A stretch of DNA of 24,000 nucleotides from Burkholderia cepacia. GTDB lineage: Bacteria; Pseudomonadota; Gammaproteobacteria; Burkholderiales; Burkholderiaceae. Shown in pieces: positions 1-21,791 of the stretch. The translations under genes and the position numbers were made by a program. The notes below the pieces were generated by a model, which was given only the letters and a program-made list of their open reading frames with translations, was not told the origin of the DNA and did not search any database. The stretch lies in NCBI RefSeq assembly GCF_001718835.1, contig NZ_CP013442.1, positions 628,775 to 652,774 on the forward strand, written 5' to 3'. How positions within the stretch are numbered: position 1 is the first letter of the stretch; each line of letters begins with the position of its first letter.

Positions 1-3000
1 TCACAGATGTCCTTCCAATGCAGAGATTTCCCGTTCGAGCCGGGCGACCAGTTCGTCCGCGGACAGGTCGGTCCGCGCGGCCGGCGCGGCCTCGTCCTGC
101 ACATCGCGGCGCGCGGCCGCCGCCGGAGCGGCCGCTGCGGCCGTCTTGCCCGCCTCGTCCGCCAGCGCGGCGAGATGCGCGGCGAGCGCCACGATGCTCG
201 GGTAGTCGAACGCTATCGTCGGCGCCAGGCGCCGCCCCGTGAGCGCGCATAGCTCGTTGCGCAGTTCCATCGCCATCAGCGAATCGAGGCCCAGCTCGCG
301 CAACGGCATCTGCACGTCGAGTCGCGTCGACGGCCGAGTGCCCGTCACCTTGCGCACCGCCTGCTCGACCAGCATGCGCGGATCGACGTCGCGCCCCGGC
401 GCGGCGGCCGCCGGCGACGGCGCGGCCGAAGGGTTGCCCACGTCCGCCAGCAGCGACGGGCGCACGGCGCGCGTCTGCGCGACCGTCGCCCAGTCGGCCG
501 CGATCACCGCGACCTGGCTGTCGGGCGCGTTCAGCAGCCGCGCGAGGCTGGCCATGCCGCTCGCCGGCTTTAGCAGGAACTGACCTTGCGCGCGCAGCCG
601 GCGCAGCGCGGCGGCCTCCATCGAACCCGCCATGCCGGCCCCGCTCCAGCCGCCCCAGTTGACAGCGAGGGCCGGCAGGCCGAGGCGGCGGCGGTACTGG
701 ACCAGCGCGTCGAGATAGCCGTTGGCCGCCGCGTAGTTGCCCTGGCCCGCTGCGCCGAGCGCCGATGCAATCGACGAGTAGACGACGAAGAAGTCCAGCG
801 GCACCCCACTGGTCCGCTCATGAATCCAGCGCGCACCGTCCGCCTTGGGCGCGATCACGCGGCCATAGCGCGGCTCGTCGAGCGCGCTCAGCGGCGCGTC
901 GTCGAGCGTGCCGGCGGCATGCAGCACGCCCCGCAGCGGCGGCCAGCCGTCCGCGAGCGCGGCGAACAGGCTATCGACATCCGCCTCGACGCCGATGTCG
1001 GCAGGCGTCCAGCCGCACCGTACGCCGCGCGCCGACAGGTGTTCGAGCAGCGCGTCGAGCGCTGCGTCGCGGGTTCGGGAGGTCAGCAACAGGTGCCGGG
1101 CGCCACGCTCGACCAGCCATTGCGCGGCTTCCCGGCCGAGTGCGCCGCTGGCGCCCGTGACGAGGTAGGTCGCGCCGGCCGGCAACGCGTCGCCGTCATC
1201 GTCCGCGACGCGCAGCACGACCTTGCCCACGTGACGGCCCTGCGCCATCGTGCGGAACGCCGCGCGCGCGTCGCGCAGCGGATGGACCGTGCGCGGCAGC
1301 GGCTGCAACTCGCCGCGCGCGAACATCGCCTGCAGTTCGCCAAACAGCGCTTCGATCCGTTCGCCCGGCACGTCGGCGATGTCGAAAGGCAGGTAGCGCG
1401 CGCCCGGATGATGCGCGGCGACGCGCTCCGGCGGCCAGATCTCCGCCTTGCCCATTTCCAGGAAGACGCCCGACGGGCCGAGCGCGCGCAGGCTTTCCGG
1501 GATGAAGTCGCCGGTCAGCGCGTTGAGCACGGCGTCGACGCCGCGGCCGCCGGTGCTCGCGAGAATCTCGTCGGCGAAGCCCAGGCTGCGCGAATCGAAG
1601 CGATGCTCGACGCCCAGCCGCTCCAGCACGCCGCGCTTGCCCGCGCTCGCGGTGGCGAACACCTGCACGCCCATGCGTTGCGCCAGCTGGACCGCCGCGA
1701 GGCCGACGCCCGTGGCGGCGGCGTGAATCAGGATGCGCTGGCCGCGCGCGAGACCGCCGAGCGTCGTCAGCGCGTAATGCGCGGTCAGGAAAGCGACAGG
1801 CACCGTGGCCGCCGCCTCGAACGACCAGTCGTCGGGCATCCGCGCGACGTAGCGGGCATCGACGACCGCATGCGACGCGAAGCTCCCGTCGGCCATCGCC
1901 ATCACGCGGTCGCCGACCCGCAGCGTCGTCACGCCATCACCGATCGCGGTAACCACGCCGCTCAACTCGCCGCCGATGCCGCTCGCGCTCGCCGGCAGCT
2001 TGCCGAGCACGCGCAGCACGTCGCGGAAATTGAGGCCGGCGGCGCGCACCGCGATCGCGACCTCCCCGCGTCCCGGCTGCGGCGCCGCGCAGGCGGCCAG
2101 CGCCAGCGACTCCAGCCGGCCATCGGCCGCCGCCGTGAGCCGGTACGACGCCGCGGTCGGCACGGCCAGGCTGTCGTCGCCGGCGGCCACCCGCAGCCGC
2201 AGCGCGTAGCGGCGCGCACGCAGGCACACATCGGTCTCGCCGTCGGTGCGCCACAGCTCCGGCCACAGCGCGTCCGCCGCCGCGTCGTCCGGCAGGCCGC
2301 GCGCCAGATCGACGTTGGTGCAGCGCAGGTCCGGGTACTCGACCGCGAGCGTGCGACCCAGCGCCGCGATCGCGCCGGCCGCCGGCACGCCCGGCTCCGG
2401 ATCGTCGGCCGGCGACCACGCGCCCGCGGTCACGAGCCACAGCTTGAAACCCGGCGCCAGCGGCGCAGCGGCGAGCGCGACGGCCAATGCGCCGACGCGC
2501 GCGGCCACGCCGGCGATCGCCGTGCTGCCCGCCGCGACGTCCAGCTCCGGCACGACGCGCAGCGCGCCCCGCAACGGGCCGGGCGCGTCGCGCAATGCCG
2601 CGGCGATCGCGTCGCGCCCCGCCGCCTCGTCGACGCGCACGAGCGTCACGTCGGCGCCGCCGCGCGCGAACCTTGCCTCGAGCGCGGCGCAGCGCGCGGG
2701 CGCGCCGACCAGCAGCCAGACGCCTGCTGGATCGTCCGGCCCAACGGCTGCGTCGACCGGCGTCCATTCGATCGCATGCTCGGTCGGCTCCGCCGCTTCG
2801 GGCGCCGCGGCCGCCGGTTCCGCGAGGCGGCGCAGCGTCATGCCGCGCACCTCCATCACCGGCGCGCCGTCGTCCGCGAAGAGGCGCAGCGTCGCGCGGA
2901 TCGTGTCCGGCTGCGCGTCGCCATCGCGGTCCAGCCAGACGGCCACCCGCGACGCGGCAAACGGCCGGGTGTCACGCGACAGCACGACCTCGTCGAACGC

Positions 3001-6000
3001 GAGCGGCACGAAGGCCCCGTCGCGCAGTTGATAGACGAGGCACGCGGCGGTTGCCTGCAGCGCCGCGTCGAGCAGCCCGGGATGCACCGTGAGCCCGTTC
3101 GTCGTCCCTTGATCGAGCAGGGTCGCCTCGGCGCGATGCGCGCCGTGACGCACGTCGGCGAGCGCCTGGAAACTGCCGCCGTAGCCCAGCCCGCGCCGCG
3201 CGAATTGCGCGCGCAGCGCATCGCCGCCCAGCTGCCCGACGAGCGCGTCGTCGGCGGCGTCGAACGGCAGCGCGCCGGCTTCGCGCGCGACCGGCGCCAG
3301 CTCGCCGCGCGCATGCTCGGTCCAGCCCGCTTCTGCGCGCGCGGCGTCGCCCCGGCTGTGGATCGCGAAGCGCCTCCCACCATTCGCCGGCGCGGAGACG
3401 ACCAGCTGGATCACCCGGGTCTCGTCCTCGGCGAGGCGCAGCGGCGCGCTCAACACCACGTCGCGCACGCCCGTCGCGACGCCGTCGCCCAGCGCATCGC
3501 ACGCCTCGAGCGCGAGGCTCAGGTAGAAGCTGCCCGGCACCAGGATCGCCCCGGACAGGCGGTGGTCGCGCAGGAACGCGTGGCTGCGCGCGCTGCAACG
3601 CTGCTCGAACACGGTCGAGCCGTCCGCGACGTCGACGCGCGCGCCGAGCCCGGACGCCGCGATGCCAGGCGCACCGCCCGCGGTCTCGGCATCGTCCGGT
3701 TCGACCCAGTAGCGCTTGCGCTGGAACGGATAGGTCGGCAACGCGACCTTGACCGGCCGCTCGACGCGATGCAGCGACGCCCAGTCCAGCGCCGCGCCGC
3801 GCACGTGCAGCCCCGCCGCGCTCTCCAGCATCTGCTCGACCTCCCCGCGCCCCGGGCGCAGGCTCGCCAGCGACACCACCTCGCTGTCCGGCCCCAGCGT
3901 CTGCCGCGCCAGCACCGTCAGCGTCGGACGCGCGCCGATCTCCAGCACCACGTCCACGCCCTGCGCCGCCAGCGCCTCGATCCCAAGACCGAACCGCACC
4001 GGCGCGCGCGTATGCTCGACCCAGTACTCCACCGTCGCCACTTCCGCCCCCGCCACCGCGCCGCTCACGTTCGACACCAGCGGCAACTGCGGCGCCGACA
4101 GCCGCGTCGCCTTCAGCACCGCCTCGTACGCCGCCAGCATCGGCTCCACCAGCGGTGAGTGAAACGCATGCGAGCCCGGCAGCAGGTCCGTGCGTACCCC
4201 TTCCTGCGCCAGCCGCGCACGCAGCGCCTCGATCTGCGCCGACGCCCCCGCCACCACCTGCTGCGACGGCCCGTTCAGCGCGGCGATCACCAGCCCGCCG
4301 CCCTGCTCCGCCAGCCGCTCGCGCAGCGTCGCCGCGTCCAGCATCACCGACAGCATCGCCCCGCCTTCGCAACGGCTCTGCATCAGCCGCCCGCGGCTCG
4401 CCACCAGCTTCAGCCCCGCCTCCAGCGTCAGCACCCCGGCCGCCTGCGCCGCCATGTACTCGCCCAGGCTGTGACCCATCACCACCTGCGGCGTCACGCC
4501 CCAGCTCTCCCACGTCCGGCGCAGCGCATACCCCAGCGCAAACAGCGCCGGCTGCGTGTAGTCCGTGCGGTCCAGCAGCGCCGTCGACGCCCCGTACAGC
4601 ACCTCCAGCAGCCCTACCTCCAGCTCGCCTTCCAGCAGGCTCGCGCATTCGTCCAGCGCCGCCCGGAATACCGGCTCGCGCTCATACAGCTCGCGCCCCA
4701 TTCCCGCGTATTGCGAGCCCTGGCCCGTGAACAGCATCGCCACCCGCGGCCGGCGGTTCCGGTACACCCCGCGCAGCAGCGCCGGCTGCTCGCCGCCCTC
4801 GCCGAACGCGCGCAGCCGCGACACCAGCTCCGCCCGCTCGCGCACCACCCACGCCGCGCGCTGCTCGAACGCGCTGCGCCCCGTGTTCGCCGTGTAGCAG
4901 ATCGACGCCAGATCCGCCGAGCCCTGCTCCACGAACGATGCATAGCGCGTCGACAGCGCGCGCAACGCCTCCTCGCTGCGCGCCGACAGCGTCAGCACCT
5001 GCGCGCCGCGACCCGCGCCCGAAGCTTCCCGCACCACCTCCGGCGCCGATTCCAGGATCGCATGCGCATTCGTGCCGCTGAAGCCGAACGAACTCACACC
5101 GATCATCTTCAGCGGCGCGTCGTTTTCCGTCAGGCGCGTCGGCACCGCCAGCCCGCTGCCGGCCCAGTCGAAGCGGGGGTTCGGATTCGTGAAGTTGAGG
5201 CTCGCGGGTACCCGCTGGTGCTGCAGCATCAGCACCGACTTGATCAGCCCCGCGATGCCCGCGGCGGCTTCCAGATGGCCGATGTTGGTTTTCACCGAGC
5301 CGACCAGCAGCGGCCGCTGCGCGGTGCGCCCGCGCCCGTACACCTTCGCCAGCGCGGCCAGCTCGATCGGGTCGCCGAGCGGCGTGCCCGTGCCGTGCGC
5401 CTCGACGTAGCCGATCGCGCCGGCCTCGACGCCGGCATCCTTCAGCGCGGCTTCCAGCAGGCGCTCCTGCGCCCGGCCGTTCGGCACGGTCAGCCCGCTG
5501 CTCGCGCCGTCATGGTTGATGGCCGTGCCGCGAATCACGGCCAGGATCCGGTCGCCGTTAGCGCGCGCGTCGTCGAGCCGCTTCAGCACGATCACGCCGG
5601 CCCCTTCGCCGCGCAGATAGCCGTCGGCCGCCGCGTCGAACGTGTGACAGCGGCCGGTCGGCGACAGCGCCCGGATCTTGCAGCAGAACACCGTGGACAG
5701 CGGCGACAGCATCAACGCGACCCCGCCCGCGAGCGCCATGTCGCACTCGCCCATGCGCAGGCTCTGGCACGCCTCGTGGACCGCGACCAGGCTGGCCGAG
5801 CACGCCGTGTCGACGAGCATCGTCGGCCCCTCGACGCCGAGCACGTAGGCGAGCCGGCCCGCCGCGATGCTCGGTGTGTTGCCGAGCCCCGCGTACGCAT
5901 CGACGCGCCGCGCGTCGCGGCCGAACGCGAGCCGCTCGTAGTCGTGCCAGCTCACGCCCATGAAGACGCCGCACGATGCCCCCCGCACCGCGCTCGGCGC

Positions 6001-6399
6001 GATCCCGGCATGCTCGAGCGCTTCCCAGCCCACTTCCAGCAGCAGCCGCTGCTGAGGATCGAGCGACACGGCCTCGCGCTCCGCGATGCCGAAGAACGCC
6101 GGGTCGAAGCTGTCCACCGCGTCCAGGAAGCCGCCGCGCCGCACGTACATCTTGCCCGGCGCCTCCGGATCGGGATCGAAGAAGTGCTCGACGTCCCAGC
6201 GGTCCGCCGGAATCTCCGTCGTCACGTCCCGGCCGTTCGACAGGACGTCCCAGAACGCGTCCGGGCCCGCGACGTCGTGCGGAAAGCGGCAGCCGATGCC
6301 GACAATCGCAAGCGGCTGGCGCCGGGCCCGCTCGAGCGCCTCGACCCGCTCCCGCGCGAGCTTGAGCGCCTGCGCGATCCGTTGCTGCGTTGTAGTCAC
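1..6399 (-). CDS. Type I modular polyketide synthase, one fully reducing module: KS-AT-DH-ER-KR-ACP, no thioesterase
   Basis: Complete ORF: GTG start at 6397-6399 with GGGGA 7 nt upstream, TGA at 1-3. Motifs read from the translation follow. KS: DTACSAS / EAHGTGT / NIGHLE (approx nt 5050-6315). AT: GQGSQ, GHSLGE, YTQPALF, HAFHS, i.e. malonyl-type (approx 3820-4743). DH: HRLSGAILVPG, LGYGGSF, LLDAALQ (approx 2830-3657). ER: LNFRDVL ... HAAATGVGLAAVQLA (approx 1207-2157). KR: TYLVTGASGALG, LDD, SSIASALGAAGQGNYAAAN (approx 625-1173). ACP: LGLDSL (approx 160-378). The N-terminus has a coiled-coil docking-like helix, QRIAQALKLARERVEALERA. Confidence 0.95.
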   Translation of the reverse strand: MTTTQQRIAQALKLARERVEALERARRQPLAIVGIGCRFPHDVAGPDAFWDVLSNGRDVTTEIPADRWDVEHFFDPDPEAPGKMYVRRGGFLDAVDSFDPAFFGIAEREAVSLDPQQRLLLEVGWEALEHAGIAPSAVRGASCGVFMGVSWHDYERLAFGRDARRVDAYAGLGNTPSIAAGRLAYVLGVEGPTMLVDTACSASLVAVHEACQSLRMGECDMALAGGVALMLSPLSTVFCCKIRALSPTGRCHTFDAAADGYLRGEGAGVIVLKRLDDARANGDRILAVIRGTAINHDGASSGLTVPNGRAQERLLEAALKDAGVEAGAIGYVEAHGTGTPLGDPIELAALAKVYGRGRTAQRPLLVGSVKTNIGHLEAAAGIAGLIKSVLMLQHQRVPASLNFTNPNPRFDWAGSGLAVPTRLTENDAPLKMIGVSSFGFSGTNAHAILESAPEVVREASGAGRGAQVLTLSARSEEALRALSTRYASFVEQGSADLASICYTANTGRSAFEQRAAWVVRERAELVSRLRAFGEGGEQPALLRGVYRNRRPRVAMLFTGQGSQYAGMGRELYEREPVFRAALDECASLLEGELEVGLLEVLYGASTALLDRTDYTQPALFALGYALRRTWESWGVTPQVVMGHSLGEYMAAQAAGVLTLEAGLKLVASRGRLMQSRCEGGAMLSVMLDAATLRERLAEQGGGLVIAALNGPSQQVVAGASAQIEALRARLAQEGVRTDLLPGSHAFHSPLVEPMLAAYEAVLKATRLSAPQLPLVSNVSGAVAGAEVATVEYWVEHTRAPVRFGLGIEALAAQGVDVVLEIGARPTLTVLARQTLGPDSEVVSLASLRPGRGEVEQMLESAAGLHVRGAALDWASLHRVERPVKVALPTYPFQRKRYWVEPDDAETAGGAPGIAASGLGARVDVADGSTVFEQRCSARSHAFLRDHRLSGAILVPGSFYLSLALEACDALGDGVATGVRDVVLSAPLRLAEDETRVIQLVVSAPANGGRRFAIHSRGDAARAEAGWTEHARGELAPVAREAGALPFDAADDALVGQLGGDALRAQFARRGLGYGGSFQALADVRHGAHRAEATLLDQGTTNGLTVHPGLLDAALQATAACLVYQLRDGAFVPLAFDEVVLSRDTRPFAASRVAVWLDRDGDAQPDTIRATLRLFADDGAPVMEVRGMTLRRLAEPAAAAPEAAEPTEHAIEWTPVDAAVGPDDPAGVWLLVGAPARCAALEARFARGGADVTLVRVDEAAGRDAIAAALRDAPGPLRGALRVVPELDVAAGSTAIAGVAARVGALAVALAAAPLAPGFKLWLVTAGAWSPADDPEPGVPAAGAIAALGRTLAVEYPDLRCTNVDLARGLPDDAAADALWPELWRTDGETDVCLRARRYALRLRVAAGDDSLAVPTAASYRLTAAADGRLESLALAACAAPQPGRGEVAIAVRAAGLNFRDVLRVLGKLPASASGIGGELSGVVTAIGDGVTTLRVGDRVMAMADGSFASHAVVDARYVARMPDDWSFEAAATVPVAFLTAHYALTTLGGLARGQRILIHAAATGVGLAAVQLAQRMGVQVFATASAGKRGVLERLGVEHRFDSRSLGFADEILASTGGRGVDAVLNALTGDFIPESLRALGPSGVFLEMGKAEIWPPERVAAHHPGARYLPFDIADVPGERIEALFGELQAMFARGELQPLPRTVHPLRDARAAFRTMAQGRHVGKVVLRVADDDGDALPAGATYLVTGASGALGREAAQWLVERGARHLLLTSRTRDAALDALLEHLSARGVRCGWTPADIGVEADVDSLFAALADGWPPLRGVLHAAGTLDDAPLSALDEPRYGRVIAPKADGARWIHERTSGVPLDFFVVYSSIASALGAAGQGNYAAANGYLDALVQYRRRLGLPALAVNWGGWSGAGMAGSMEAAALRRLRAQGQFLLKPASGMASLARLLNAPDSQVAVIAADWATVAQTRAVRPSLLADVGNPSAAPSPAAAAPGRDVDPRMLVEQAVRKVTGTRPSTRLDVQMPLRELGLDSLMAMELRNELCALTGRRLAPTIAFDYPSIVALAAHLAALADEAGKTAAAAAPAAAARRDVQDEAAPAARTDLSADELVARLEREISALEGHL
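3701..5076. repeat. Copy 1 of a 1376-bp direct repeat (KS-AT linker + AT + post-AT linker cassette)
   Basis: Hand alignment to 9306-10681 at a constant offset of 5605 nt gave no indels and 12 mismatches, at copy-1 positions 3758, 3760, 4028, 4031, 4035, 4087, 4599, 4615, 4630, 4652, 4669 and 4684. The boundaries fall at the GTNAH (KS end) and YPFQRKRYWV (post-AT linker) codons. Confidence 0.95.
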
Positions 6400-6430
6400 C
6401 TTGAAGTCCCCATGTTTGTGCGCGTGATGC

Positions 6431-9400
6431 TCAGCGGCGCAGCGACGCCTCGAGGCGCGCCAGTTCCGCGTCGACGTCGTCCGCCGGCTCGCCCGCCGCC
6501 TGCCCCGGACTCCCGGCCCCGGCCGCCGGCATCGGCTCGTCCGCCGCCGGTGCGCGTTCCGCCTTCAGCCGCTCGAACAGGAAGTCGGCGCCGAGCTCGA
6601 CGTTGCCGTAGTCGAACGCGAAGGTCGCCGGCAGCGACAGCCGCAGGTCGCGCTGCACCTTGCTGCGAAACTCGACGGCGGCCAGCGAATCCAGCCCGAG
6701 CTCCAGGAAGCCGCGGGTCGGCGCGACCTCCTCGGCGGTGCGGCCGAGCATCACCGCGATCTGCGCCTGCAGATAGGTCGCCAGCGCGTCGTGCAGGGCC
6801 GGCAGCGCCAGCGCGTCGAAGCGGTCGCGCTCGTCGTGGGTCGCGGCGGGCGCGGCGTCCGCCGCCTCCTTCGGGAACCAGTCGGCGAGCAGCTTGCGCA
6901 CGCCCTCGGACGGTTCGGTCTGCGCGTAGCGCTGCCAGTCGTCGTTGCCGATCACCACCGTGGCCGCGTCGGCGCGCCGCGCCGCTTCGACGTGCTTGAG
7001 GAGCTCGTCCGGCGACAGCGCCTGCAGGCCGCGCGCGGCCGCCTTGTCGCGATGCGCGCGATCGAGCGCGGCTGCCATCCCGACTTCGGCGAACGGCCCC
7101 CACTGGATGCTCGTGGCCGGCAGCCCGAGCGTGCGGCGGGCGCCGACGAGCGCGTCGAGGTACGCGTTAGCCGCCGCGTAGCTGCCCTGCCCGGCGGTGC
7201 CGAACAGCGCGCTGATCGACGAGAAGCAGACGAAGCAGTCGAGCGGCGCGTCGAGGCTCAGCGCATGCAGGTTGAGCGCGCCCGCGACCTTCGCGTGGAG
7301 CGGCACCGCGAACTCCGCCCAGGACTGGCCGCCCAGCACCCCGTCGCGCAGCGCGCCGGCCGCGTGGAAGATGCCCTTCAGCGGCAGCGGGCCGGACAGC
7401 ACGGTCTCGTGCCATGCGGCGCGCAGCGCCTCGAGATCGGCGACGTCGCAGCGGGCCAGGTCGACCGTGCAGCCCTGCTTGCGCAGCGCGTCGATCGCGG
7501 CGGCCGCGGCGGCGTCGGGGGCGCCGCGCGACATCAGCACGAGCCGCTTCACGCCGGCCTGCGCGAGCTGTTGCGCAAGGCGCAGGCCCAGCCCGCCCAG
7601 CCCGCCGGTGATCAGGTAGCTGCCGTTCGGCTCCAGCGGCGGCACGTCCCGGCGGGCCGGCTTCGCTCGCCCAAGGCGGGCGGCATGCACCGCGCCGTCG
7701 CGAAGCGCGAGCTGCAATTCGTCCGGCGCCGCGTGCAGCAGCGGCGCCAGCGCGGCGGCCGGGTCGGCCGTCGCGGGATCCAGGTCGATCGTGCGGCAGC
7801 CCCATTCCGGATGCTCGGACGCGACCACGCGCGAGAGCCCGGTCAGCGTCGCCTGTGCCGCGCGCTCGACGTTCAGCGTGCCGCCCAGCTCTTGCGCGCC
7901 CCCGGTGACGAAGCTCAAGCGAGCCGGCCTGTCGACCTGCGCCAGCGCGCCGACGAGCGCGAGTGCGCCACCGCACAGCTGCGCCTGGACGGCGAGCGGA
8001 TCGGCCGGCGTGTCGGCCTCGGCGCCGAAGTCCAGCGCGCGCAGGTCCACGACATGCAGGGTGCCCTTGCCCGCACGCGCCGCGACCGCACGCAGCGTGT
8101 CGCGCCATGCCGCCTCGCTCGCCGGATCGGCCAGCGGCACGCTCAGGTCGTCGCCGGTGTGCGATGCCGCATCGACCTGCAGGCAGCGCACCCCCGCGCT
8201 GCGCAGCCGCGCGGCCAGCGCCGCGCCGGTTCCAGCGCCGTCGCCGGCGACCAGTACGCAGTCGTCGGCCGGCAGCAGCGGCGTCGCCAGATCGTCGAGG
8301 CGCTGCCAGCGGGTCGCGAACAGGCGATCCGTTCCGTCGCCCTGCAACAGCGCATGCACCGCGCCCCGATGCAGGCGGCGCACCTCGAAGCCGCGCACAT
8401 GCGCGATCACGCGCCCCGAGTCCTCGAACACCCGGATATCCGCGGTCACGCCGTTCTCCTCGCCCTCGCCCTGCCGGACGATCCGCGCATGGACCCATAG
8501 CCGGTCGGTGGCGGGGCGGCCGTACAGGCGATAGCTGTCGATGCTGAACGGCACGTAGATGTAGTCGGTCTTGAGCAGCTCCTCGGTCGCGAACTGCCAG
8601 CAGCTGTTGAGCAGCTGGAAACCGGATTCGACGAGGCCCGCGTGGAACGGCCCGTCGATCGGTTCGAGCAGCGCCGGCAGACGCGTGCGGCACAGCGCCT
8701 CCGCGTCGCCCCGCCAGATCTCGTCGATCCAGCGGAACGAATTGCCCGTGTCCATGCCGGGAATCCACACTTTCGAATAGAAATCGGCGCCCGACAGGTA
8801 GTCCGCGCAGCGCGCCTTGACCGCGTCCAGCTCCGATGCGTCCGGGGCCGGCGGCAGCGCGCGCGGGCCTCGAATGCTGCGCGCCTCGACGTGGAGGGTC
8901 CACGCCGCGTCGTCGGCGGGATCGCGTTGCGGTGCGAGCGTGACCATCTCGATCGCATGCGACTGGCCGGCCGCCGGCCGCATCACGATCTGCACCGTGC
9001 GCCGTCCGGCCTCGGGCATCACGAACGGCCGGAGGAACAGGATTTCGTCGACGACGCAGCCGGCTTCGCCGTAGACCGCCTCGGCGGCGGCCAGGAACAT
9101 CGCGATGTGCGACGCGCCGGGCACGACCATCGCACCGAACAGGCGATGGTGGTCCACGTAGGCAGGCCAATCCGGACGGAATTCGGCCTCGAAGCGGACC
9201 TCGGTCGAACGCGGCAGCTTCAGGCGCCGGCCGAGCAGCGTGTGCAGGCCGCCTTCGTCGGACGCCGCGTGCCGGTGCGCGGACGCATCGGCGTGCTGGC
9301 TCGCGTCGACCCAGTAGCGCTTGCGCTGGAACGGATAGGTCGGCAACGCGACCTTGACCGGCTGGTCGACGCGATGCAGCGACGCCCAGTCCAGCGCCGC

Positions 9401-12400
9401 GCCGCGCACGTGCAGCCCCGCCGCGCTCTCCAGCATCTGCTCGACCTCCCCGCGCCCCGGGCGCAGGCTCGCCAGCGACACCACCTCGCTGTCCGGCCCC
9501 AGCGTCTGCCGCGCCAGCACCGTCAGCGTCGGACGCGCGCCGATCTCCAGCACCACGTCCACGCCCTGCGCCGCCAGCGCCTCGATCCCAAGACCGAACC
9601 GCACCGGCGCGCGCGTATGCTCGACCCAGTACCCCGCCGCCGCCACTTCCGCCCCCGCCACCGCGCCGCTCACGTTCGACACCAGCGGCAATTGCGGCGC
9701 CGACAGCCGCGTCGCCTTCAGCACCGCCTCGTACGCCGCCAGCATCGGCTCCACCAGCGGTGAGTGAAACGCATGCGAGCCCGGCAGCAGGTCCGTGCGT
9801 ACCCCTTCCTGCGCCAGCCGCGCACGCAGCGCCTCGATCTGCGCCGACGCCCCCGCCACCACCTGCTGCGACGGCCCGTTCAGCGCGGCGATCACCAGCC
9901 CGCCGCCCTGCTCCGCCAGCCGCTCGCGCAGCGTCGCCGCGTCCAGCATCACCGACAGCATCGCCCCGCCTTCGCAACGGCTCTGCATCAGCCGCCCGCG
10001 GCTCGCCACCAGCTTCAGCCCCGCCTCCAGCGTCAGCACCCCGGCCGCCTGCGCCGCCATGTACTCGCCCAGGCTGTGACCCATCACCACCTGCGGCGTC
10101 ACGCCCCAGCTCTCCCACGTCCGGCGCAGCGCATACCCCAGCGCAAACAGCGCCGGCTGCGTGTAGTCCGTGCGGTCCAGCAGCGCCGTCGACGCCCCGT
10201 ACAACACCTCCAGCAGCCCCACCTCCAGCTCGCCCTCCAGCAGGCTCGCGCATTCGGCCAGCGCCGCCCGGAACACCGGCTCGCGCTCGTACAGCTCGCG
10301 CCCCATTCCCGCGTATTGCGAGCCCTGGCCCGTGAACAGCATCGCCACCCGCGGCCGGCGGTTCCGGTACACCCCGCGCAGCAGCGCCGGCTGCTCGCCG
10401 CCCTCGCCGAACGCGCGCAGCCGCGACACCAGCTCCGCCCGCTCGCGCACCACCCACGCCGCGCGCTGCTCGAACGCGCTGCGCCCCGTGTTCGCCGTGT
10501 AGCAGATCGACGCCAGATCCGCCGAGCCCTGCTCCACGAACGATGCATAGCGCGTCGACAGCGCGCGCAACGCCTCCTCGCTGCGCGCCGACAGCGTCAG
10601 CACCTGCGCGCCGCGACCCGCGCCCGAAGCTTCCCGCACCACCTCCGGCGCCGATTCCAGGATCGCATGCGCATTCGTGCCACCGATCCCGATCGAACTC
10701 ACGCCGGCCACGCGCACGCCGCCCTCGGGGCGCCACGCGCGCAACTGCGTATTGACGAAGAACGGACTTGCGTCGAACGGAATGTCCGGATTGGTCTGCG
10801 TGCAGTGCAGGCTCGGCGGGATCTCGCCGTGAAATACCGTGAGGACCGCCTTGATCAGCCCGGCGACGCCCGCCGCCTGATCGAGGTGCCCGATGTTGGT
10901 CTTGACCGAGCCGATCGCGCAGAAGCCGGTGTCCGCGGTCGACGCGCGGAATGCCTGCGTCAGCGCGGCGATCTCGATCGGATCGCCGAGCGGCGTCGCC
11001 GTGCCGTGCGCCTCGACATAGCCGATCGCGCGCGGATCGATGCCGGCCGCCGCGTGCGCCTCCATGATCGCGGCTGCCTGGCCGTCGACGCTTGGCGCGG
11101 TGTACCCGACCTTGCCCGAGCCGTCGTTGTTGATCGCCGTCCCCTTCACCACCGCGTAGATGCGGTCCCCGGCCGCGAGCGCGTCGTCGAGCCGCTTCAG
11201 CACGACCACGCCGGCGCCGCTGCCGAACACGGTGCCCGCGCCCTGTCGGTCGAATGCGCGGCAGTGTCCGTCGGGCGACGCGACCATCCCTTCCTGGTAC
11301 AGGTAGCCGATGCGATGCGGAACGTGAATGCTGACCCCGCCGGCGAGTGCCGCGTCGCACTCGCCGCGCAACAGGCTTTGCGCAGCCAGGTGCACGGCGA
11401 CCAGCGAAGTCGAGCAGGCCGTCTGCACGTTGACGCTCGGGCCGTGCAGGTTCAGCCGGTAGCTGACGCGCGTCGGCAGGTGATCCTTCTCGTTGCTGAT
11501 GCGGATCTGGAAGGCCGCCGCGGGTGCCGAGTCCGACTCGAGCGGCGCGAGTACCGACTTGTGATAGCCGCTCGCGTCCGTTCCCGCAAATACGCCAATC
11601 CCGTCGCCCTCCTTCTGCGGATCGATGCCCGCATCTTCCAGTGCCTGCCACGCGCATTCGAGAAAGATCCGCTGCTGCGGATCGAGCAGCTCGGCTTCGC
11701 GCGGGCTCATGCCGAAGAAGGTCGCGTCGAACAAGTCGATGTCGTCGAGCACGAAGCCCGCGCGCACGTAGTTCGGATCGGCGAGCAGCGCAGGCGAGAC
11801 GCCCGCCGCGCGCAGTTCGGCCTCGCTGAATTCCGTGCGCGATTCCACGCCTTCGCGCAGGTTGCGCCAGAACGCGTCGACGCTCGACGCGCCCGGCACC
11901 CGCACCCCGATCCCGACCACGGCAACGCTCGCCGAGCGCGCCGGCATCTCGCCCCGGCTGCGTCCGCGCGGCCGGCCAGCGGCGACGGCCGACTGGCCGT
12001 GCGCGTCGAGATAGGCGGCCAGCCCGGCCACCGTCGGATTGCGGAAGAACTCGACGCGCGGCACGCGCATCCCGAACGCCTGCTCGATCTTCTGCTGCAT
12101 CTGCAGCAGCAGCATCGAATGACCGCCGAGATCGAAGAAATTGACATCGACGCCCACCTCGGGCGTGCGCAGCACGTCCCGCCAGATCGCCTGCACGCGT
12201 TCGAGCGTCGATCCGTGCGCCGCGGCCTGCGGCGCGGGCGACACCGCGCGGGCGAGCGCCGGCAGCGCGTTGCGGTCGACCTTGCCGTTGTCGGTCAGCG
12301 GCACCCGCTCGATGGACACGAACGCCGCTGGAATCATGTAGTCGGGCAGCGTGCGGCGCAGGCCGTCGCGCCACTGCGCTGAGCGGTCCGCGGCCGCGCC

Positions 12401-14452
12401 GTCGTCGTGCACCACGTAGGCGACGAGCCGCTGGTCGTCCTCGTCGAGGCGTTCGACGATGGCCACCGCCTGGCGCACGCCCGGCAGCGCAGTCAACGCG
12501 GCCTCGACGTCGCCCAGCTCGATCCGGAAGCCGCGCAGCTTCACCTGGTTGTCGAGCCGCGCGAGCCAGCGGATCGCACCGCTCGCGCTCGCCCGCACCA
12601 GGTCGCCGGTGCGATACAGCCGAACCGCGCGATCGCCGTCGAGCGTCACTTCGACGAACCTCTCCCGCGTCAGCGAATCGCGGCCGTGGTAGCCATCGGC
12701 GAGGCCCTCGCCGCCGATGTACAGCTCGCCCGCCACGCCGGGCGGCACCGGCGCACCATGCGCGTCGAGGATATGCAGGTGCACGTTGCGCAGCGGCGCG
12801 CCGATCGCCACGAAGCCGTGATCGCGCACGTCGTGCCAGGTCGCCCACACGGTCGCCTCCGTCGGCCCGTAGACGTTGCACAGGCGGCCCACCAGCGGAC
12901 GCAGCGCGCGCGCGAGCGGCTCGTCGAGCGCTTCGCCGCCGCACACGGCGGTCAGGTCGGGCTTGCCTCGCCATTGCGCGGCGACCAGCATCCGCCACGT
13001 GGCCGGCGTCGCTTGCAGCACGCGCGCCTGCGCCGCGTCAATCCGGCTCGCCAGCGCCAACGGGTCCGCCGTTTCGTCGCGGCTGGCAAGCCACACGCGC
13101 CCGCCGGCGACGAGCGGCACGAACAGCTCCGCGAACGCGATGTCGAACATCGGCGTGGTCACGGCCAGCCACGTCTCGCCCACCTGCAAGCCGCTGCGCT
13201 CGTGCATCGCGAGCAGCAGGTTGACGGCCGCACGATGCGCGACGCGCACGCCCTTGGGCTGGCCCGTCGAGCCCGACGTGTAGATCAGGTAGGCGATCGC
13301 GGAAGGATCGTCATCGCTGAAGTCAGCGCCCGCGCCGTCGCCCGGCACGCCTTCCAGCAGCGCGTCCAGCGCCACCTGCGGACGCGCCTGCGCACCGTCG
13401 GCTGCCGCTTCGGCGATCACGAGCCGGACGTCGGCGTTCTCCAGGATGAAATCGCGTCGCGCGGCAGGGTAGCCGGGGTCCAGCGGAACGTACGCGCAGC
13501 CGGCCGTCATCACGCCGAGCAGCGCGCTCAGCAAATCGACGCGACGCTCCACGCACACCGCCACGCGCTCGCCCGGCTGGATGCCGCGTGCGCGAATCGC
13601 GCGTGCGACCCGCGCCGCGCGCTGCAGCAGTTCGCGATAGCTTAGCCGCTGCGTCGCCGTTTCGACAGCAATCGCGTCCGGCGTCCGCCCGGCGGCCGCA
13701 CGGATCAGCGCGCTGACCGTCAGATCGGGTATCTCCGCCACCGGGCCGCGGAGCGTGTCGCGCCATGCGGCGAGCGCATGCGCCGGCCACAGCGGCAGCT
13801 CGCCGACCGGCGCGGCCGCCGCGTCCGGCAGCGCCGTGGCCGCGCCAAGCCAGCTCGTCAGCATGCCCGAGATCGTCGCGGCTTCGTAACGATCCTCGTC
13901 GTACTCGCACTCGAGCAACAGCGCGTCCGCGCGGCGGATCAGCATGAAATTGAGCTCGCTGTCGACGAACAGCGCGTCGGCGTCGTCCAGCGCCGCCTCG
14001 GACAGCGCCGCCTCGGCGAGATCGGCGGGCAAGTTGACGAACGACACCGTCACCGGAGCAGGCGCGCGCTCGGGATCGTGCGGCGTGCGCTGGTCGAGCG
14101 CGCCACGGGTCGCGCGCAGCAGCACGTCGGCCGGCGCGTCCGGCGCGACGTCGAGCGTCAGGCGCGTGCGCGCCGGTTCGCCCTGTGCGTCAGCGTGCGT
14201 GATCAGGTCGAGCGGCACGCTGCGCTGGTCAGCGTAGCGGGCGAGCGTCATGCCGAGCGCCGCGAGCCAGAGCGTCGCCTCCGCGTAGCCGCCGTGCCGC
14301 GCGCGCGCGCCGGCCGCCTCCGCCGTCGCGGCGGGCACGGGCATGTCGTTTCGCATCCTGCGGTAGCGAGGCGTGACCGGCGCGGGATAGTCCCGCGGCA
14401 GGTCGAGCGGTACGGGCGTGTGCGTCGCGGGCTTCGTCGTGTGTGCGTTCAT
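6431..14452 (-). CDS. Hybrid NRPS-PKS: truncated condensation domain (C-terminal lobe only)-A-T-KS-AT-DH-KR-ACP
   Basis: Complete ORF: ATG 14450-14452, TGA 6431-6433. Residues 1 to ~225 match only the C-terminal lobe of a C domain; they start at LDLPRDYPAP (LPxDxxRP-type motif) and no HHxxxDG is present. A domain: LSYRELL, AGCAYVPLD, YTSGSTGQPKG, FDIAF, NVYGPTE, GELYIGGEGLADGY, YRTGD, GKVDR (approx 12248-13720). PCP: FFDLGGHS (approx 12008-12211). KS: QTACSTS / EAHGTAT / NIGHLD (approx 10655-11929). AT: GHSLGE / HAFHS (approx 9425-10348). DH: HRLFGAMVVPG (approx 8363-9250). KR: SYLITGGLGGLG, LRD, SSISALFGTAGQGSYAAAN (approx 7088-8275). ACP: LGLDSL (approx 6578-6805). The C-terminus carries the helix DVDAELARLEASLRR. 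Confidence 0.95.
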   Translation of the reverse strand: MNAHTTKPATHTPVPLDLPRDYPAPVTPRYRRMRNDMPVPAATAEAAGARARHGGYAEATLWLAALGMTLARYADQRSVPLDLITHADAQGEPARTRLTLDVAPDAPADVLLRATRGALDQRTPHDPERAPAPVTVSFVNLPADLAEAALSEAALDDADALFVDSELNFMLIRRADALLLECEYDEDRYEAATISGMLTSWLGAATALPDAAAAPVGELPLWPAHALAAWRDTLRGPVAEIPDLTVSALIRAAAGRTPDAIAVETATQRLSYRELLQRAARVARAIRARGIQPGERVAVCVERRVDLLSALLGVMTAGCAYVPLDPGYPAARRDFILENADVRLVIAEAAADGAQARPQVALDALLEGVPGDGAGADFSDDDPSAIAYLIYTSGSTGQPKGVRVAHRAAVNLLLAMHERSGLQVGETWLAVTTPMFDIAFAELFVPLVAGGRVWLASRDETADPLALASRIDAAQARVLQATPATWRMLVAAQWRGKPDLTAVCGGEALDEPLARALRPLVGRLCNVYGPTEATVWATWHDVRDHGFVAIGAPLRNVHLHILDAHGAPVPPGVAGELYIGGEGLADGYHGRDSLTRERFVEVTLDGDRAVRLYRTGDLVRASASGAIRWLARLDNQVKLRGFRIELGDVEAALTALPGVRQAVAIVERLDEDDQRLVAYVVHDDGAAADRSAQWRDGLRRTLPDYMIPAAFVSIERVPLTDNGKVDRNALPALARAVSPAPQAAAHGSTLERVQAIWRDVLRTPEVGVDVNFFDLGGHSMLLLQMQQKIEQAFGMRVPRVEFFRNPTVAGLAAYLDAHGQSAVAAGRPRGRSRGEMPARSASVAVVGIGVRVPGASSVDAFWRNLREGVESRTEFSEAELRAAGVSPALLADPNYVRAGFVLDDIDLFDATFFGMSPREAELLDPQQRIFLECAWQALEDAGIDPQKEGDGIGVFAGTDASGYHKSVLAPLESDSAPAAAFQIRISNEKDHLPTRVSYRLNLHGPSVNVQTACSTSLVAVHLAAQSLLRGECDAALAGGVSIHVPHRIGYLYQEGMVASPDGHCRAFDRQGAGTVFGSGAGVVVLKRLDDALAAGDRIYAVVKGTAINNDGSGKVGYTAPSVDGQAAAIMEAHAAAGIDPRAIGYVEAHGTATPLGDPIEIAALTQAFRASTADTGFCAIGSVKTNIGHLDQAAGVAGLIKAVLTVFHGEIPPSLHCTQTNPDIPFDASPFFVNTQLRAWRPEGGVRVAGVSSIGIGGTNAHAILESAPEVVREASGAGRGAQVLTLSARSEEALRALSTRYASFVEQGSADLASICYTANTGRSAFEQRAAWVVRERAELVSRLRAFGEGGEQPALLRGVYRNRRPRVAMLFTGQGSQYAGMGRELYEREPVFRAALAECASLLEGELEVGLLEVLYGASTALLDRTDYTQPALFALGYALRRTWESWGVTPQVVMGHSLGEYMAAQAAGVLTLEAGLKLVASRGRLMQSRCEGGAMLSVMLDAATLRERLAEQGGGLVIAALNGPSQQVVAGASAQIEALRARLAQEGVRTDLLPGSHAFHSPLVEPMLAAYEAVLKATRLSAPQLPLVSNVSGAVAGAEVAAAGYWVEHTRAPVRFGLGIEALAAQGVDVVLEIGARPTLTVLARQTLGPDSEVVSLASLRPGRGEVEQMLESAAGLHVRGAALDWASLHRVDQPVKVALPTYPFQRKRYWVDASQHADASAHRHAASDEGGLHTLLGRRLKLPRSTEVRFEAEFRPDWPAYVDHHRLFGAMVVPGASHIAMFLAAAEAVYGEAGCVVDEILFLRPFVMPEAGRRTVQIVMRPAAGQSHAIEMVTLAPQRDPADDAAWTLHVEARSIRGPRALPPAPDASELDAVKARCADYLSGADFYSKVWIPGMDTGNSFRWIDEIWRGDAEALCRTRLPALLEPIDGPFHAGLVESGFQLLNSCWQFATEELLKTDYIYVPFSIDSYRLYGRPATDRLWVHARIVRQGEGEENGVTADIRVFEDSGRVIAHVRGFEVRRLHRGAVHALLQGDGTDRLFATRWQRLDDLATPLLPADDCVLVAGDGAGTGAALAARLRSAGVRCLQVDAASHTGDDLSVPLADPASEAAWRDTLRAVAARAGKGTLHVVDLRALDFGAEADTPADPLAVQAQLCGGALALVGALAQVDRPARLSFVTGGAQELGGTLNVERAAQATLTGLSRVVASEHPEWGCRTIDLDPATADPAAALAPLLHAAPDELQLALRDGAVHAARLGRAKPARRDVPPLEPNGSYLITGGLGGLGLRLAQQLAQAGVKRLVLMSRGAPDAAAAAAIDALRKQGCTVDLARCDVADLEALRAAWHETVLSGPLPLKGIFHAAGALRDGVLGGQSWAEFAVPLHAKVAGALNLHALSLDAPLDCFVCFSSISALFGTAGQGSYAAANAYLDALVGARRTLGLPATSIQWGPFAEVGMAAALDRAHRDKAAARGLQALSPDELLKHVEAARRADAATVVIGNDDWQRYAQTEPSEGVRKLLADWFPKEAADAAPAATHDERDRFDALALPALHDALATYLQAQIAVMLGRTAEEVAPTRGFLELGLDSLAAVEFRSKVQRDLRLSLPATFAFDYGNVELGADFLFERLKAERAPAADEPMPAAGAGSPGQAAGEPADDVDAELARLEASLRR
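9306..10681. repeat. Copy 2 of the 1376-bp direct repeat (KS-AT linker + AT + post-AT linker cassette)
   Basis: Same alignment as copy 1. The flanking KS and DH coding sequences of the two genes are clearly divergent at the nucleotide level immediately outside the repeat. Confidence 0.95.
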
Positions 14453-20754: not shown

Positions 20755-20940
20755 TCGGTCCCTCTCTTCCCGATGTTCCGTTCAATGAACATCCGTACCG
20801 CGCTGCCCGCGCGTCCGGCACAAGGTAACGCCATCCCCGCGGGGCGTCGCGGCCATGGGTGCATGTCCATCATCTGAATGCCGGCCCCGATCCGTCGGCG
20901 CGCACTCGGAAAACACCGGGTATTTCCATGAAAAAATACG

Positions 20941-20968
20941 AATATGCATTGATGCACGGCCCCTTCAA
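20941..20968 (-). promoter_or_regulatory. Candidate sigma70-type promoter for the biosynthetic operon
   Basis: Minus strand: TTGAAG (20968-20963), 16-nt spacer, CATATT (20946-20941), about 190 nt upstream of the bioF-like GTG. This is a pattern match only. Confidence 0.2.
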
Positions 20969-21120
20969 TCTCTTGCTCATTTGTGACAGGCACATCGAAT
21001 TCGCAACGGAGTCGCTTAGTGCCTCATACAGACGACACCATTGCGGCTTCGGCGACTTTCGCGCAAGAAAGGTTCGAATTAGGTCGTTTCTCGACCAAAT
21101 CCCAATAAAAGCACTGTTGC

Positions 21121-21161
21121 AATAAAAAACAAGAAACCGACGTGACTCTCAGGCAGTCACG
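21121..21161 (-). terminator. Candidate intrinsic terminator / hairpin upstream of the cluster
   Basis: The minus strand reads CGTGACT-gcctgag-AGTCACG (7-bp stem, 7-nt loop, 21141-21161) followed by tcggTTTcTTgTTTTTTaTT. The stem is short and the U-tract starts 4 nt after it, so confidence is low. No convincing minus-strand gene is seen upstream of it. Confidence 0.3.
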
Positions 21162-21563
21162 AGCCCCGTGATATCAGGCTTATCGATCAAATCAGCGCCA
21201 CATCACTCGGCAATCTTGTTTTCTTAAATATCTCGGTATTGATTTTGAATCTATCTTGCCTGTTAACCGGCATTAGCAAGCCAGGAACTGACTTGATCGG
21301 CCACTGAACCCGGCCCGTTTTGTTTTCCGCACTGAAAAGCGTAAGGGCGTGCCAGAACGACGCACATCAAAGCGCTGGCCGACAGACTCGGGGGAGTTTC
21401 TTCAACGGGACATTGCGATAATGATGCGATCCTCTTTAAACAATCTAAATCTCCGTTAGCTGAAAGCTCATCGAGTCGACAAGGTAGTACACGGCGTTTT
21501 CAAAGTCAACTTTATTGGCATTTTTATGTCGCGCGCGCAAGCGCAAGCATTAAACTCAATATT

Positions 21564-21593
21564 TTGTCGATTTGATTTGAATTTGTTTACAAT
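21564..21593 (+). promoter_or_regulatory. Candidate sigma70-type promoter facing the DUF1697 gene
   Basis: Plus strand: TTGTCG (21564-21569), 18-nt spacer, TACAAT (21588-21593), about 200 nt upstream of ATG 21792. This is a pattern match only. Confidence 0.25.
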
Positions 21594-21791
21594 CTTGCAT
21601 GGCGACATGCCGATTCGTTAGGCCCTGCGATAAATAACAGGAGATTGATCTGAAATTCGATTCAAATTGGGTGATTGACGCCGTTACACGACTCATCACC
21701 GGCGGTATCGGCCGGCGGCATTCACGGCGGAGGACCTTGTTGGTCTTCCTCTATAGAATGGATCCTCCTTCCACCAGAATCCCTTATATCC

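Follow-up and report, generated by a model that had tools for sequence, protein, structure and literature searches.

In Streptomyces, streptavidin genes are known to flank the clusters for stravidins, acidomycin, ANDA/dapamycins and alpha-methyl-KAPA (KAPA being 7-keto-8-aminopelargonic acid), the latter being converted to alpha-methyl-dethiobiotin by homologues of BioA and BioD; in target cells alpha-methyl-dethiobiotin yields alpha-methylbiotin, which is loaded onto AccB by BirA, all three compounds are real antimetabolites, and streptavidin both sequesters biotin and shields the producer (PMC13336041; bioRxiv 10.1101/2025.10.09.681295). Neither report mentions Burkholderia. In the romidepsin pathway, the logic of an adenylation-thiolation (A-T) pair followed by ketosynthase (KS), ketoreductase (KR) and dehydratase (DH) domains has been reconstituted, and it gives an allylic amine bound to an acyl carrier protein (ACP) (bioRxiv 10.1101/2025.03.13.642940). 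Here we analyse a stretch of 24,000 nucleotides from Burkholderia cepacia (assembly GCF_001718835.1, contig NZ_CP013442.1, positions 628,775 to 652,774; hereafter, the window), containing the left two-thirds of an operon that in B. ubonensis spans about 34 kb and combines biotin-type genes with a hybrid nonribosomal peptide synthetase (NRPS) and polyketide synthase (PKS) assembly line. We tentatively read this locus as the source of a methylated dethiobiotin or biotin look-alike that starves competitors of biotin, a reading that is plausible and still slightly more open to doubt than to belief.

All relevant genes of the window are on the minus strand. In the direction of transcription, the operon consists of the following genes.

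19579-20754, minus strand: BioF-like alpha-oxoamine synthase (391 aa), with which the operon begins
18311-19477, minus strand: D-amino-acid-oxidase-like (DAAO-like) FAD flavoprotein (388 aa; Pfam DAO)
17325-18308, minus strand: QOR, a reductase of the NADPH:quinone oxidoreductase family (medium-chain dehydrogenase/reductases; 327 aa; Pfam ADH_N and ADH_zinc_N)
16289-17284, minus strand: biotin synthase BioB, a second, cluster-borne copy (331 aa)
14472-16235, minus strand: carbamoyltransferase of the TobZ/NovN/GdmN family (587 aa; Pfam Carbam_trans_N and Carbam_trans_C)
6431-14452, minus strand: PKS1, hybrid NRPS-PKS (2673 aa; Pfam and motif checks)
1-6399, minus strand: PKS2 (2132 aa, the stop codon at 3..1; Pfam and motif checks)

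The biotin-type character of the locus is evident from BioB, which by comparison with characterised enzymes is a bona fide biotin synthase. It scores 384.8 bits against TIGR00433 bioB (cut-off 225) and 392 bits against E. coli BioB (1R30), and the alignment to the latter demonstrates retention of CxxxCxxC, of the 2Fe-2S ligands (Cys of FCMGAAW, ETCVTLG and KVCCGG; Arg of RLSAGR), and of the dethiobiotin-binding motifs YNHNxDT and SVPIN, including the Asn that contacts the ureido ring. The BioF-like protein (Pfam Aminotran_1_2) scores 421.2 bits against TIGR00858 bioF, just under the cut-off of 426.45, and in PDB it is approximately equidistant from BioF, serine palmitoyltransferase (SPT) and KBL (225-250 bits); its orthologues are 93.6% identical in B. 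glumae and 88% identical in Burkholderia sp. FERM BP-3421, and its nearest match in the plasmid database is a Methylobacterium gene (52%) in an uninformative context. Two explanations of this protein were considered and set aside. A recent copy of the housekeeping Burkholderia bioF is unlikely, as the score against B. multivorans BioF (240 bits) is about the same as against SPT and KBL. An off-loading role, as in the PKS-alpha-oxoamine synthase systems of the fumonisin or prodiginine type, was rejected given that the thioesterase (TE) of PKS3 (see below) is intact and that the resulting C10/C11 aminoketone would match no biotin skeleton. Pfam and NCBIfam scans of every gene found neither BioA nor BioD in the cluster or its flanks.

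The domain composition of the two synthases, as determined by Pfam, is given below.

13763-14452 (approximately), minus strand: PKS1 relic of a condensation (C) domain, a sub-threshold Condensation match
12281-13702, minus strand: PKS1 A
12008-12202, minus strand: PKS1 T
10802-11929, minus strand: PKS1 KS
9398-10339, minus strand: PKS1 acyltransferase (AT)
8357-9244, minus strand: PKS1 DH
7088-7624, minus strand: PKS1 KR
6578-6775 (approximately), minus strand: PKS1 ACP
5191-6315, minus strand: PKS2 KS
3793-4734, minus strand: PKS2 AT
2809-3648, minus strand: PKS2 DH
1213-2073, minus strand: PKS2 enoylreductase (ER)
643-1173, minus strand: PKS2 KR
172-369, minus strand: PKS2 ACP

Thus, PKS1 is A-T-KS-AT-DH-KR-ACP and PKS2 is KS-AT-DH-ER-KR-ACP, all these domains being far above the curated cut-offs. 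This agrees with an earlier note on the same DNA, whose domain order and KS, AT, KR and carrier motifs were all recovered by regular-expression searches in their places: the KS triads Cys/His/His (TACSTS/EAHGT/NIGHL in PKS1; TACSAS/EAHGT/NIGHL in PKS2), GHSLG, HAFH and YTQPALF in both AT domains, the carrier-protein serines (GGHS, GLDS and GLDS), and LRD in KR1 and LDD in KR2 together with the Tyr (YAAAN) and the NADPH-binding motifs. The malonyl specificity of AT1 and AT2 and the B-type stereochemistry of both KRs, as called in that note, are consistent with these motifs. HxxxGxxxxP is found in both DH domains, and the nucleotide-binding motif, in the PKS2 ER. The intergenic gap between PKS1 and PKS2 is exactly 31 nt, and the terminal helices reported earlier are indeed located at the PKS1 C-terminus and the PKS2 N-terminus. 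The tentative condensation domain of the note has a counterpart, but only as a remnant: residues 166-218 of PKS1 resemble the last 50 or so positions of the Condensation model (18 bits, the cut-off being 30.6), HHxxxDG is absent from this N-terminal region, and the first approximately 250 residues are only a relic of the C-terminal end of such a domain. By the motifs of its A, T, KS, in-line AT and ACP domains, the system is a modular hybrid NRPS / cis-AT type I PKS.

The first dehydratase, DH1, departs from the canonical motifs, with GMDTGNSF in place of GYxYGPxF and HAGLVESGFQ in place of HPxLLDxxxQ, that is, the catalytic Asp is replaced by Glu (LVESGFQ) and YGP by TGN, with the His motif kept. 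These odd motifs hardly change across three lineages, even though identity among their PKS1 proteins is only 79-91%; DH2 and DH3, by comparison, have canonical motifs and vary more. Hence one could speculate that DH1 has an added or altered role.

The assembly line does not end within the window. Pfam detected no TE domain in PKS2 or elsewhere in the window, and PKS2 terminates with a docking-type helix of its own (ADELVARLEREISALEGHL), which together indicate a missing downstream partner. Homology search with the KR-ACP tail of PKS2 returned short metagenomic PKS fragments and no orthologue; the missing DNA was reached via the B. glumae avidin, its 90% cluster members, the B. ubonensis avidin among them, and the contigs encoding the latter. 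Two of these contigs, L104 and L102, are respectively 99.4% and 99.2% identical to positions 1-2716 of the window and extend past position 1. In both, the TGA stop of PKS2 overlaps the ATG of a third synthase, PKS3 (2383-2386 aa), with the composition KS-AT-DH-ER-KR-ACP-TE; its TE has GHSLG and a C-terminal GGH in the B. ubonensis contigs and in B. glumae, as appropriate for chain release. A TE-bearing PKS3 follows PKS2 in B. ubonensis, B. glumae, FERM BP-3421 and a Logan contig, so the two-megasynthase line proposed in the earlier note does not hold, PKS1 and PKS2 being the first two of the three enzymes in the line.

In B. ubonensis, PKS3 is followed by genes for avidin, a major facilitator superfamily (MFS) transporter, a protein of the vicinal oxygen chelate (VOC) family and methylmalonyl-CoA mutase, and then by pntAB and a GntR-type gene; the order PKS3-avidin-MFS is also observed on plasmid bglu_2p of B. 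glumae BGR1, on plasmid p2 of FERM BP-3421 and on a Logan contig. The avidin gene (PF01382), located outside the window, directly follows PKS3 in B. ubonensis, B. glumae, FERM BP-3421 and sequence L088. The B. ubonensis protein (157 aa) starts with a Sec signal peptide and retains the streptavidin residues of the ureido-ring site and the Trp cage (N23, S27, Y43, S45, W79, W92, W108, W120 and D128); its 90% cluster also includes proteins from B. contaminans, B. pyrrocinia and Trinickia sp. NRRL B-1857. It is the placement of BioB, the BioF-like enzyme and avidin around the assembly line that gives the locus its likely anti-biotin meaning, and that it is an anti-biotin system in a broad sense, counting together the preferred reading and the first of the alternatives discussed below, seems probable.

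The genes for BioB, the BioF-like enzyme, the carbamoyltransferase and avidin co-occur with the PKS genes in at least four lineages and on different replicons. The entire locus of about 34 kb is found, for instance, at 56.8-89.6 kb of NC_012718.1 and in B. ubonensis CP013445.1. The window is 99.5% identical to CP013445.1 of GCA_001718855.1, B. glumae BGR1 plasmid bglu_2p matches positions 3-20786 with 90.7% DNA identity, and plasmid p2 of FERM BP-3421 is 83-84% identical; 37 B. glumae plasmid records carry the cluster. The exact carbamoyltransferase sequence is found in GCA_001718855.1 and GCA_001530285.1, and the exact-sequence look-up of PKS1 and PKS2 gave no match, each protein differing by at least one residue. 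In general, the cluster is strain-variable, often plasmid-borne and has insertion sequence (IS) elements on its flanks.

The carbamoyltransferase gene is located 19 nt upstream of PKS1 and probably is translationally coupled to it, in agreement with the earlier suggestion of a ureido product. The closest PDB matches of the protein are NovN (E 4e-110), GdmN and TobZ. In the genomes of GTDB species, among the best 80 of at least 597 matches, the only close relatives are those from Trinickia sp. NRRL B-1857 (97%) and Streptomyces camponoticapitis (48%). The latter (L007, NZ_BMMV01000050.1, 5801-10590) lies between a stand-alone A domain, which has an N-terminal extension and whose code was read as DILQLGCIWK (Gly), and further NRPS sequence. 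As the only close homologue outside the cluster among these matches adjoins a Gly-type A domain, this arrangement supports the action of the carbamoyltransferase on the amine of an aminoacyl starter. The S. camponoticapitis locus, situated downstream of a gene for a SARP regulator and an MFS gene, looks like an uncharacterised NRPS primed with N-carbamoyl-glycine.

To predict the starter, the A-domain code was read by hand against the GrsA anchor positions, giving D-I-A-Q-V-G-V-V-W-K. Seven of these ten positions (278-331 and 517) fall in motif stretches that are the same in four lineages. The code for glycine is DILQLGLIWK. Thus, the PKS1 code is Gly-like, as the earlier note had assumed for the starter, with four smaller pocket residues (L239A, L299V, L322V and I330V), and the starter is likely either Gly or Ala, both small alpha-amino acids; only with Ala would the product match biotin exactly. 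The third AT differs from the first two: GQSMG and YASH (RVDYASHS) were found in all four PKS3 proteins checked (B. glumae, FERM BP-3421, L088 and B. ubonensis L102), and, by YASH in place of HAFH, AT3 is predicted to be specific for methylmalonyl, its serine motif GQSMG being unusual. The mutase encoded downstream passes its equivalog cut-off (1060 bits), and the VOC protein has methylmalonyl-CoA epimerase as its best, sub-threshold, match (47.6 bits).

The complete assembly line therefore reads A-T / KS-AT(mal)-DH-KR-ACP / KS-AT(mal)-DH-ER-KR-ACP / KS-AT(methylmalonyl)-DH-ER-KR-ACP-TE. Assuming colinearity, Ala would provide C9, C8 with its nitrogen, and C7; the first malonyl unit, C6 and C5; the second one, C4 and C3; and methylmalonyl, C2 with the methyl group and C1. 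Module 1, having KR and DH and no ER, would leave a C6=C7 double bond, modules 2 and 3 would reduce fully, and the TE would release the acid. From three extensions we infer a nine-carbon, 2-methyl chain with C6=C7 as its sole unsaturation, whose remaining functionality would be confined to C7, the position of the second ring nitrogen of dethiobiotin. The predicted product is a C8/C9 2-methyl acid, and the 6-aminohex-4-enoyl thioester, proposed earlier as the short C6 end point, would at most be an intermediate. Hence the domain assignments and the ureido hint of the earlier note stood, and its chain length and two-synthase claim did not; the biotin-type genes (BioB, BioF-like, avidin) had been left unconnected in it. 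The label of an orphan cluster stands within the full-text literature searched, where no paper describes the Burkholderia cluster, MIBiG and antiSMASH having been outside this search.

On this basis, the following scheme may be proposed. The carbamoyltransferase would turn the 8-amine into a ureido group, either on the starter bound to its carrier or at the stage of the allylic-amine intermediate, so that the chain on ACP1 would be a gamma-ureido-alpha,beta-enoyl thioester. The distal urea nitrogen would then add to C7 (5-exo aza-Michael addition), forming the imidazolidinone ring without BioA or BioD, possibly with the help of the atypical DH1. Two fully reducing modules and the TE would lead to alpha-methyl-dethiobiotin. 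BioB would insert sulfur to give alpha-methylbiotin, or else would serve for self-resistance as a resistant or extra copy of the target; secreted avidin would bind up biotin from the surroundings and might also carry the product or neutralise it, and the mutase and the epimerase-like protein would feed AT3. We regard the aza-Michael route to alpha-methyl-dethiobiotin specifically as a tentative proposal, somewhat more likely to fail than to hold. The full claim, that the NRPS-PKS and the carbamoyltransferase build the dethiobiotin/biotin ring from alanine, three malonate-type units and carbamoyl phosphate by aza-Michael closure, bypassing BioF, BioA and BioD, is possible and rather doubtful.

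Several points weigh against the production of a methylated biotin look-alike. The product is predicted from genes alone and under colinearity, PKS3 and avidin were read from 99%-identical sister contigs, that is, from molecules other than the window, and no direct precedent for the aza-Michael ring closure was found. The absence of YGP and the Glu in place of the catalytic Asp make dehydration by DH1 itself uncertain. Enzymes of the TobZ family are mostly O-carbamoyltransferases. The A-domain code is closest to that of Gly, and a Gly-derived product would lack C9, in which case BioB would be unable to close the thiophane ring and could only be a resistance or target copy. Further, gamma-amino enoyl thioesters can isomerise and lose the nitrogen, as happens in romidepsin (bioRxiv 10.1101/2025.03.13.642940). 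Finally, the conserved BioF-like, DAAO-like and QOR proteins have no step in the scheme, suggesting that the chemistry is partly different.

Between B. ubonensis and B. glumae, identity is 92-94% for all five proteins of the cassette, each of which is also conserved better than PKS1 in the comparison with FERM BP-3421. For the latter three proteins, identity to the FERM BP-3421 counterparts is 83-88%; being conserved better than PKS1, they are functional members of the cluster. The best PDB matches of the DAAO-like protein are human and pig DAAO (E 7e-30); the equivalent of the carboxylate-binding Arg283 is kept, while Tyr224 is replaced by Asp and Tyr228 by Phe. The protein shares 99% identity with 'amino acid oxidase [Burkholderia ubonensis]', has an orthologue in B. 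stagnalis and belongs to a family whose members are approximately 60% identical across phyla and occur in varied gene contexts. QOR scores 248 bits against TIGR02824 (PIG3-type), and in the PDB it lies nearest to zeta-crystallin/QOR proteins and to the ER domains of PKSs.

In Herbaspirillum seropedicae (CP013136.1; L096, 1-9737), a DAAO-like gene with 69% identity occurs in a small locus with genes for an ACP, a transglutaminase-core protein, a carbamoyltransferase (34% identical to that of the window), an ApbA-type reductase, a flavin reductase and an MFS transporter. Possibly, the locus encodes a further small-molecule pathway that is as yet uncharacterised. The possibility that the DAAO-like protein and the carbamoyltransferase form a conserved pair was rejected, as the Herbaspirillum transferase, at 34%, is below generic family members and the other DAAO contexts are unrelated.

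Four alternatives to the preferred reading were considered. According to the first, the active compound is (E)-8-amino-2-methylnon-6-enoic acid, a look-alike of KAPA and 7,8-diaminopelargonic acid (DAPA) that acts as a suicide substrate of the pyridoxal-phosphate enzyme BioA in the style of vigabatrin or amiclenomycin, and the cassette is a bypass independent of BioA and BioD that supplies the producer with biotin: the BioF-like enzyme would make KAPA, the carbamoyltransferase would carbamoylate it, the ureido-ketone would cyclodehydrate to an imidazolinone, QOR would reduce that to dethiobiotin, and BioB would finish the synthesis. This compound would have the skeleton of the preferred model and would retain the same one double bond; the order bioF / DAAO-QOR / bioB / carbamoyltransferase resembles a bio operon with bioA and bioD replaced, BioA and BioD being absent from the cluster and flanks; the BioF-like enzyme, QOR, the carbamoyltransferase and BioB would all acquire roles; and BioA inhibitors of the stravidin/amiclenomycin type are co-produced with streptavidin in Streptomyces (PMC13336041). 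We nevertheless consider this variant unlikely. The host should already own BioF and BioB, and a bypass would need only the carbamoyltransferase and QOR. The carbamoyltransferase gene adjoins PKS1, with probable translational coupling, and its only close homologue among the listed matches is paired with an NRPS A domain, both pointing to action on the assembly line. The DAAO-like protein would still have no role, and cyclodehydration with subsequent reduction to dethiobiotin is without precedent.

Under the second alternative, which also seems improbable, the polyketide is no biotin mimic, being, for example, an N-carbamoyl amino-alkenoic acid with another target, and the part of BioB and the BioF-like enzyme is limited to raising biotin synthesis in the producer, either against the secreted avidin or for the biotin-dependent carboxylases that supply extender units. 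BioB and the BioF-like protein indeed look ordinary and fully functional, the operon contains the mutase and epimerase-like genes for precursor supply, and turnover of BioB is limiting. On the other hand, the correspondence of the C9 chain, the 2-methyl group, the nitrogen at C8 and the functionalised C7 to alpha-methyl-KAPA and alpha-methyl-dethiobiotin would then be a coincidence, the joint travel of avidin, BioB, the BioF-like gene and the carbamoyltransferase with the PKS genes in at least four lineages and on different replicons argues to the contrary, and the carbamoyltransferase, the DAAO-like protein and QOR would be left unexplained.

A polyketide route to the genuine cofactor, a biotin vitamer for the producer's own use, would fit the dethiobiotin-matching skeleton and the functional residues of BioB. 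Against it, the YASH-type AT3, the mutase and the epimerase-like protein predict a 2-methyl branch, which is absent from natural biotin; in addition, the locus encodes a secreted avidin along with an efflux pump, and the cluster is strain-variable, often plasmid-borne and flanked by IS elements, making this route very unlikely. The least credible alternative is the self-contained two-synthase line of the earlier note, ending at the 6-aminohex-4-enoyl (or 6-ureidohex-4-enoyl) thioester, which has in its favour the domain order and motifs at positions 1-14452 and which, as a description of the end product, the sequences refute, PKS2 having no TE and ending in a docking helix, with its stop codon overlapping the start of the TE-bearing PKS3 in the 99%-identical B. 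ubonensis contigs and in three other lineages.

The two malonyl AT regions are nearly identical at the DNA level, forming a long repeat.

3701-5101, minus strand: copy A of the 1401-nt near-identical repeat, in PKS2 (KS-AT linker, AT and a part of the post-AT linker)
9306-10706, minus strand: copy B, within PKS1

The copies differ by 18 mismatches in 1401 nt (98.7% identity). The same duplication was observed in B. glumae and FERM BP-3421, which points to the two malonyl ATs evolving in concert or exchanging sequence by gene conversion. It is also a hazard in short-read assembly.

Upstream of the operon, the edge of the cluster is marked by an AT-rich spacer, beyond which the window contains unrelated housekeeping genes on the plus strand (21792-24000).

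20755..21675, no strand assigned: AT-rich intergenic region of approximately 900 bp upstream of the operon
21792-22322, plus strand: DUF1697 gene, neighbour outside the cluster
22422-22730 (approximately), plus strand: small DUF6039 gene, neighbour outside the cluster
22958-23473, plus strand: MsrB/SelR gene, neighbour outside the cluster
up to 24000, plus strand: DsbD/thioredoxin-like protein gene (start only), neighbour outside the cluster

The GC content is 48.6% at 21001-22000, compared with approximately 70% elsewhere in the window. The homology shared with the B. glumae cluster reaches to about 20786, and that shared with the FERM BP-3421 cluster, to about 20769; hence the region 20755-21675 is the edge of the island. 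This region contained no Rfam matches that could indicate a riboswitch, and no short inverted repeats or operator-like palindromes were found in it. In the sister contigs, MsrA follows the DsbD/thioredoxin-like gene, completing a methionine-sulfoxide repair set. On the other side of the cluster, the transhydrogenase genes pntA and pntB (15084-18114 in L101-L104) directly follow the mutase gene in B. ubonensis and not in B. glumae; they probably represent the chromosomal flank and not an NADPH-supplying part of the cluster, and, together with the GntR-type gene, probably lie outside it.

Plasmid p2 of FERM BP-3421 shows two local peculiarities. The PKS2 orthologue (L086, 5519-11910) is annotated as an overlapping pair of a 1944-aa PKS and a 206-aa 'acyl carrier protein', which suggests a frameshift or a sequencing error, and the VOC and mutase genes give way to an ISKra4 transposase, after which come luxI/luxR and genes of a type VI secretion cluster. 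H-NS genes are found near this copy, and IS elements flank the B. glumae one; thus, both silencing and mobility of the cluster are possible.

Biotin synthesis is a validated and under-used antibacterial target, and the only known natural arsenals combining avidin with antimetabolites are those of Streptomyces, described in 2025-2026. If the proposed reading is true, this strategy has evolved at least twice, the Burkholderia version using different enzymology and being a convergent Gram-negative counterpart, which in the rice pathogen B. glumae is plasmid-borne and in B. ubonensis sits on the third replicon. It would also be the first polyketide route to the biotin scaffold and a new assembly-line way to a cyclic urea, with chain length, branching and starter each set by a separate module, and hence an engineerable PKS route to dethiobiotin and biotin analogues. 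There is a possible bearing on the ecology of B. glumae on rice and on that of B. ubonensis, which is an antagonist of B. pseudomallei in soil. With its BioF-like, DAAO-like and QOR members, the cluster also supplies three conserved enzymes for the study of such a pathway. As PKS3 and avidin lie just outside the window, this case also demonstrates that a truncated window can mislead product prediction.

As in romidepsin (FK228) synthesis, where DepA provides A-T and DepB KS-KR-DH, an amino-acid starter would become a carrier-bound gamma-amino-alpha,beta-enoyl thioester, and that system also occurs in Burkholderia and relatives. However, romidepsin assembly deletes the nitrogen through DH-mediated isomerisation, phosphorylation by DepG and the acyl-CoA-dehydrogenase-like (ACAD-like) DepF (bioRxiv 10.1101/2025.03.13.642940), whereas the Burkholderia cluster has no phosphotransferase or ACAD, and its nitrogen is predicted to be kept and carbamoylated. 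Among carbamoyltransferases, the solved relatives NovN, GdmN and TobZ act on oxygen, unlike the N-carbamoylation proposed here. An N-carbamoylating member of the TobZ/NodU family is VioL of viomycin synthesis, which depends on carbamoyl phosphate and converts an amine of a non-ribosomal peptide precursor to a ureido group. No description of a ureido group building a cyclic urea on a PKS intermediate was found in the literature searched.

With the canonical bioFADB operon the locus shares a bona fide BioB equivalog and a BioF-like protein within 5 bits of the bioF cut-off. It differs in having no BioA, BioD or pimelate-supply gene and in being a PKS operon with avidin and an efflux pump; as a biotin operon, it thus has a clear BioB, a borderline BioF, and neither BioA nor BioD.

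The resemblance to the Streptomyces mkp(kap)/mdb nexus is in the co-location of an avidin gene with antimetabolite genes, in the BioF-like enzyme, the extra BioB and the exporter, and in the predicted 2-methyl C9 skeleton, which is the same as in alpha-methyl-KAPA and alpha-methyl-dethiobiotin. The enzymology is different. In Streptomyces the chain is made by the fatty-acid-synthase-like (FAS-like) MkpB, MkpC and MkpF with a BioI-like cytochrome P450, and then by the BioF-like MkpD, and the ring by MdbA and MdbB, homologues of BioA and BioD; in Burkholderia there are a modular NRPS-PKS and a carbamoyltransferase, and only the BioF-like enzyme has a counterpart. The methyl branch would come from methylmalonyl-CoA in Burkholderia, in contrast to the branched starter used in Streptomyces. 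Pfam and NCBIfam scans of the cluster and flanks detected no P450, FabH/KS-ACP set, class-III aminotransferase or dethiobiotin synthetase; that is, neither the FAS-like set and BioI-like P450 for 6-methylpimelate nor the BioA/BioD homologues that characterise the mkp/mdb clusters (PMC13336041) are present. The resemblance would therefore be convergent and not homologous. Falling among neither the mkp/mdb clusters nor the canonical bio operons, the Burkholderia locus is outside the Streptomyces gene-cluster family and shares with it a similar logic, that of an avidin combined with a biotin look-alike, here a predicted one.

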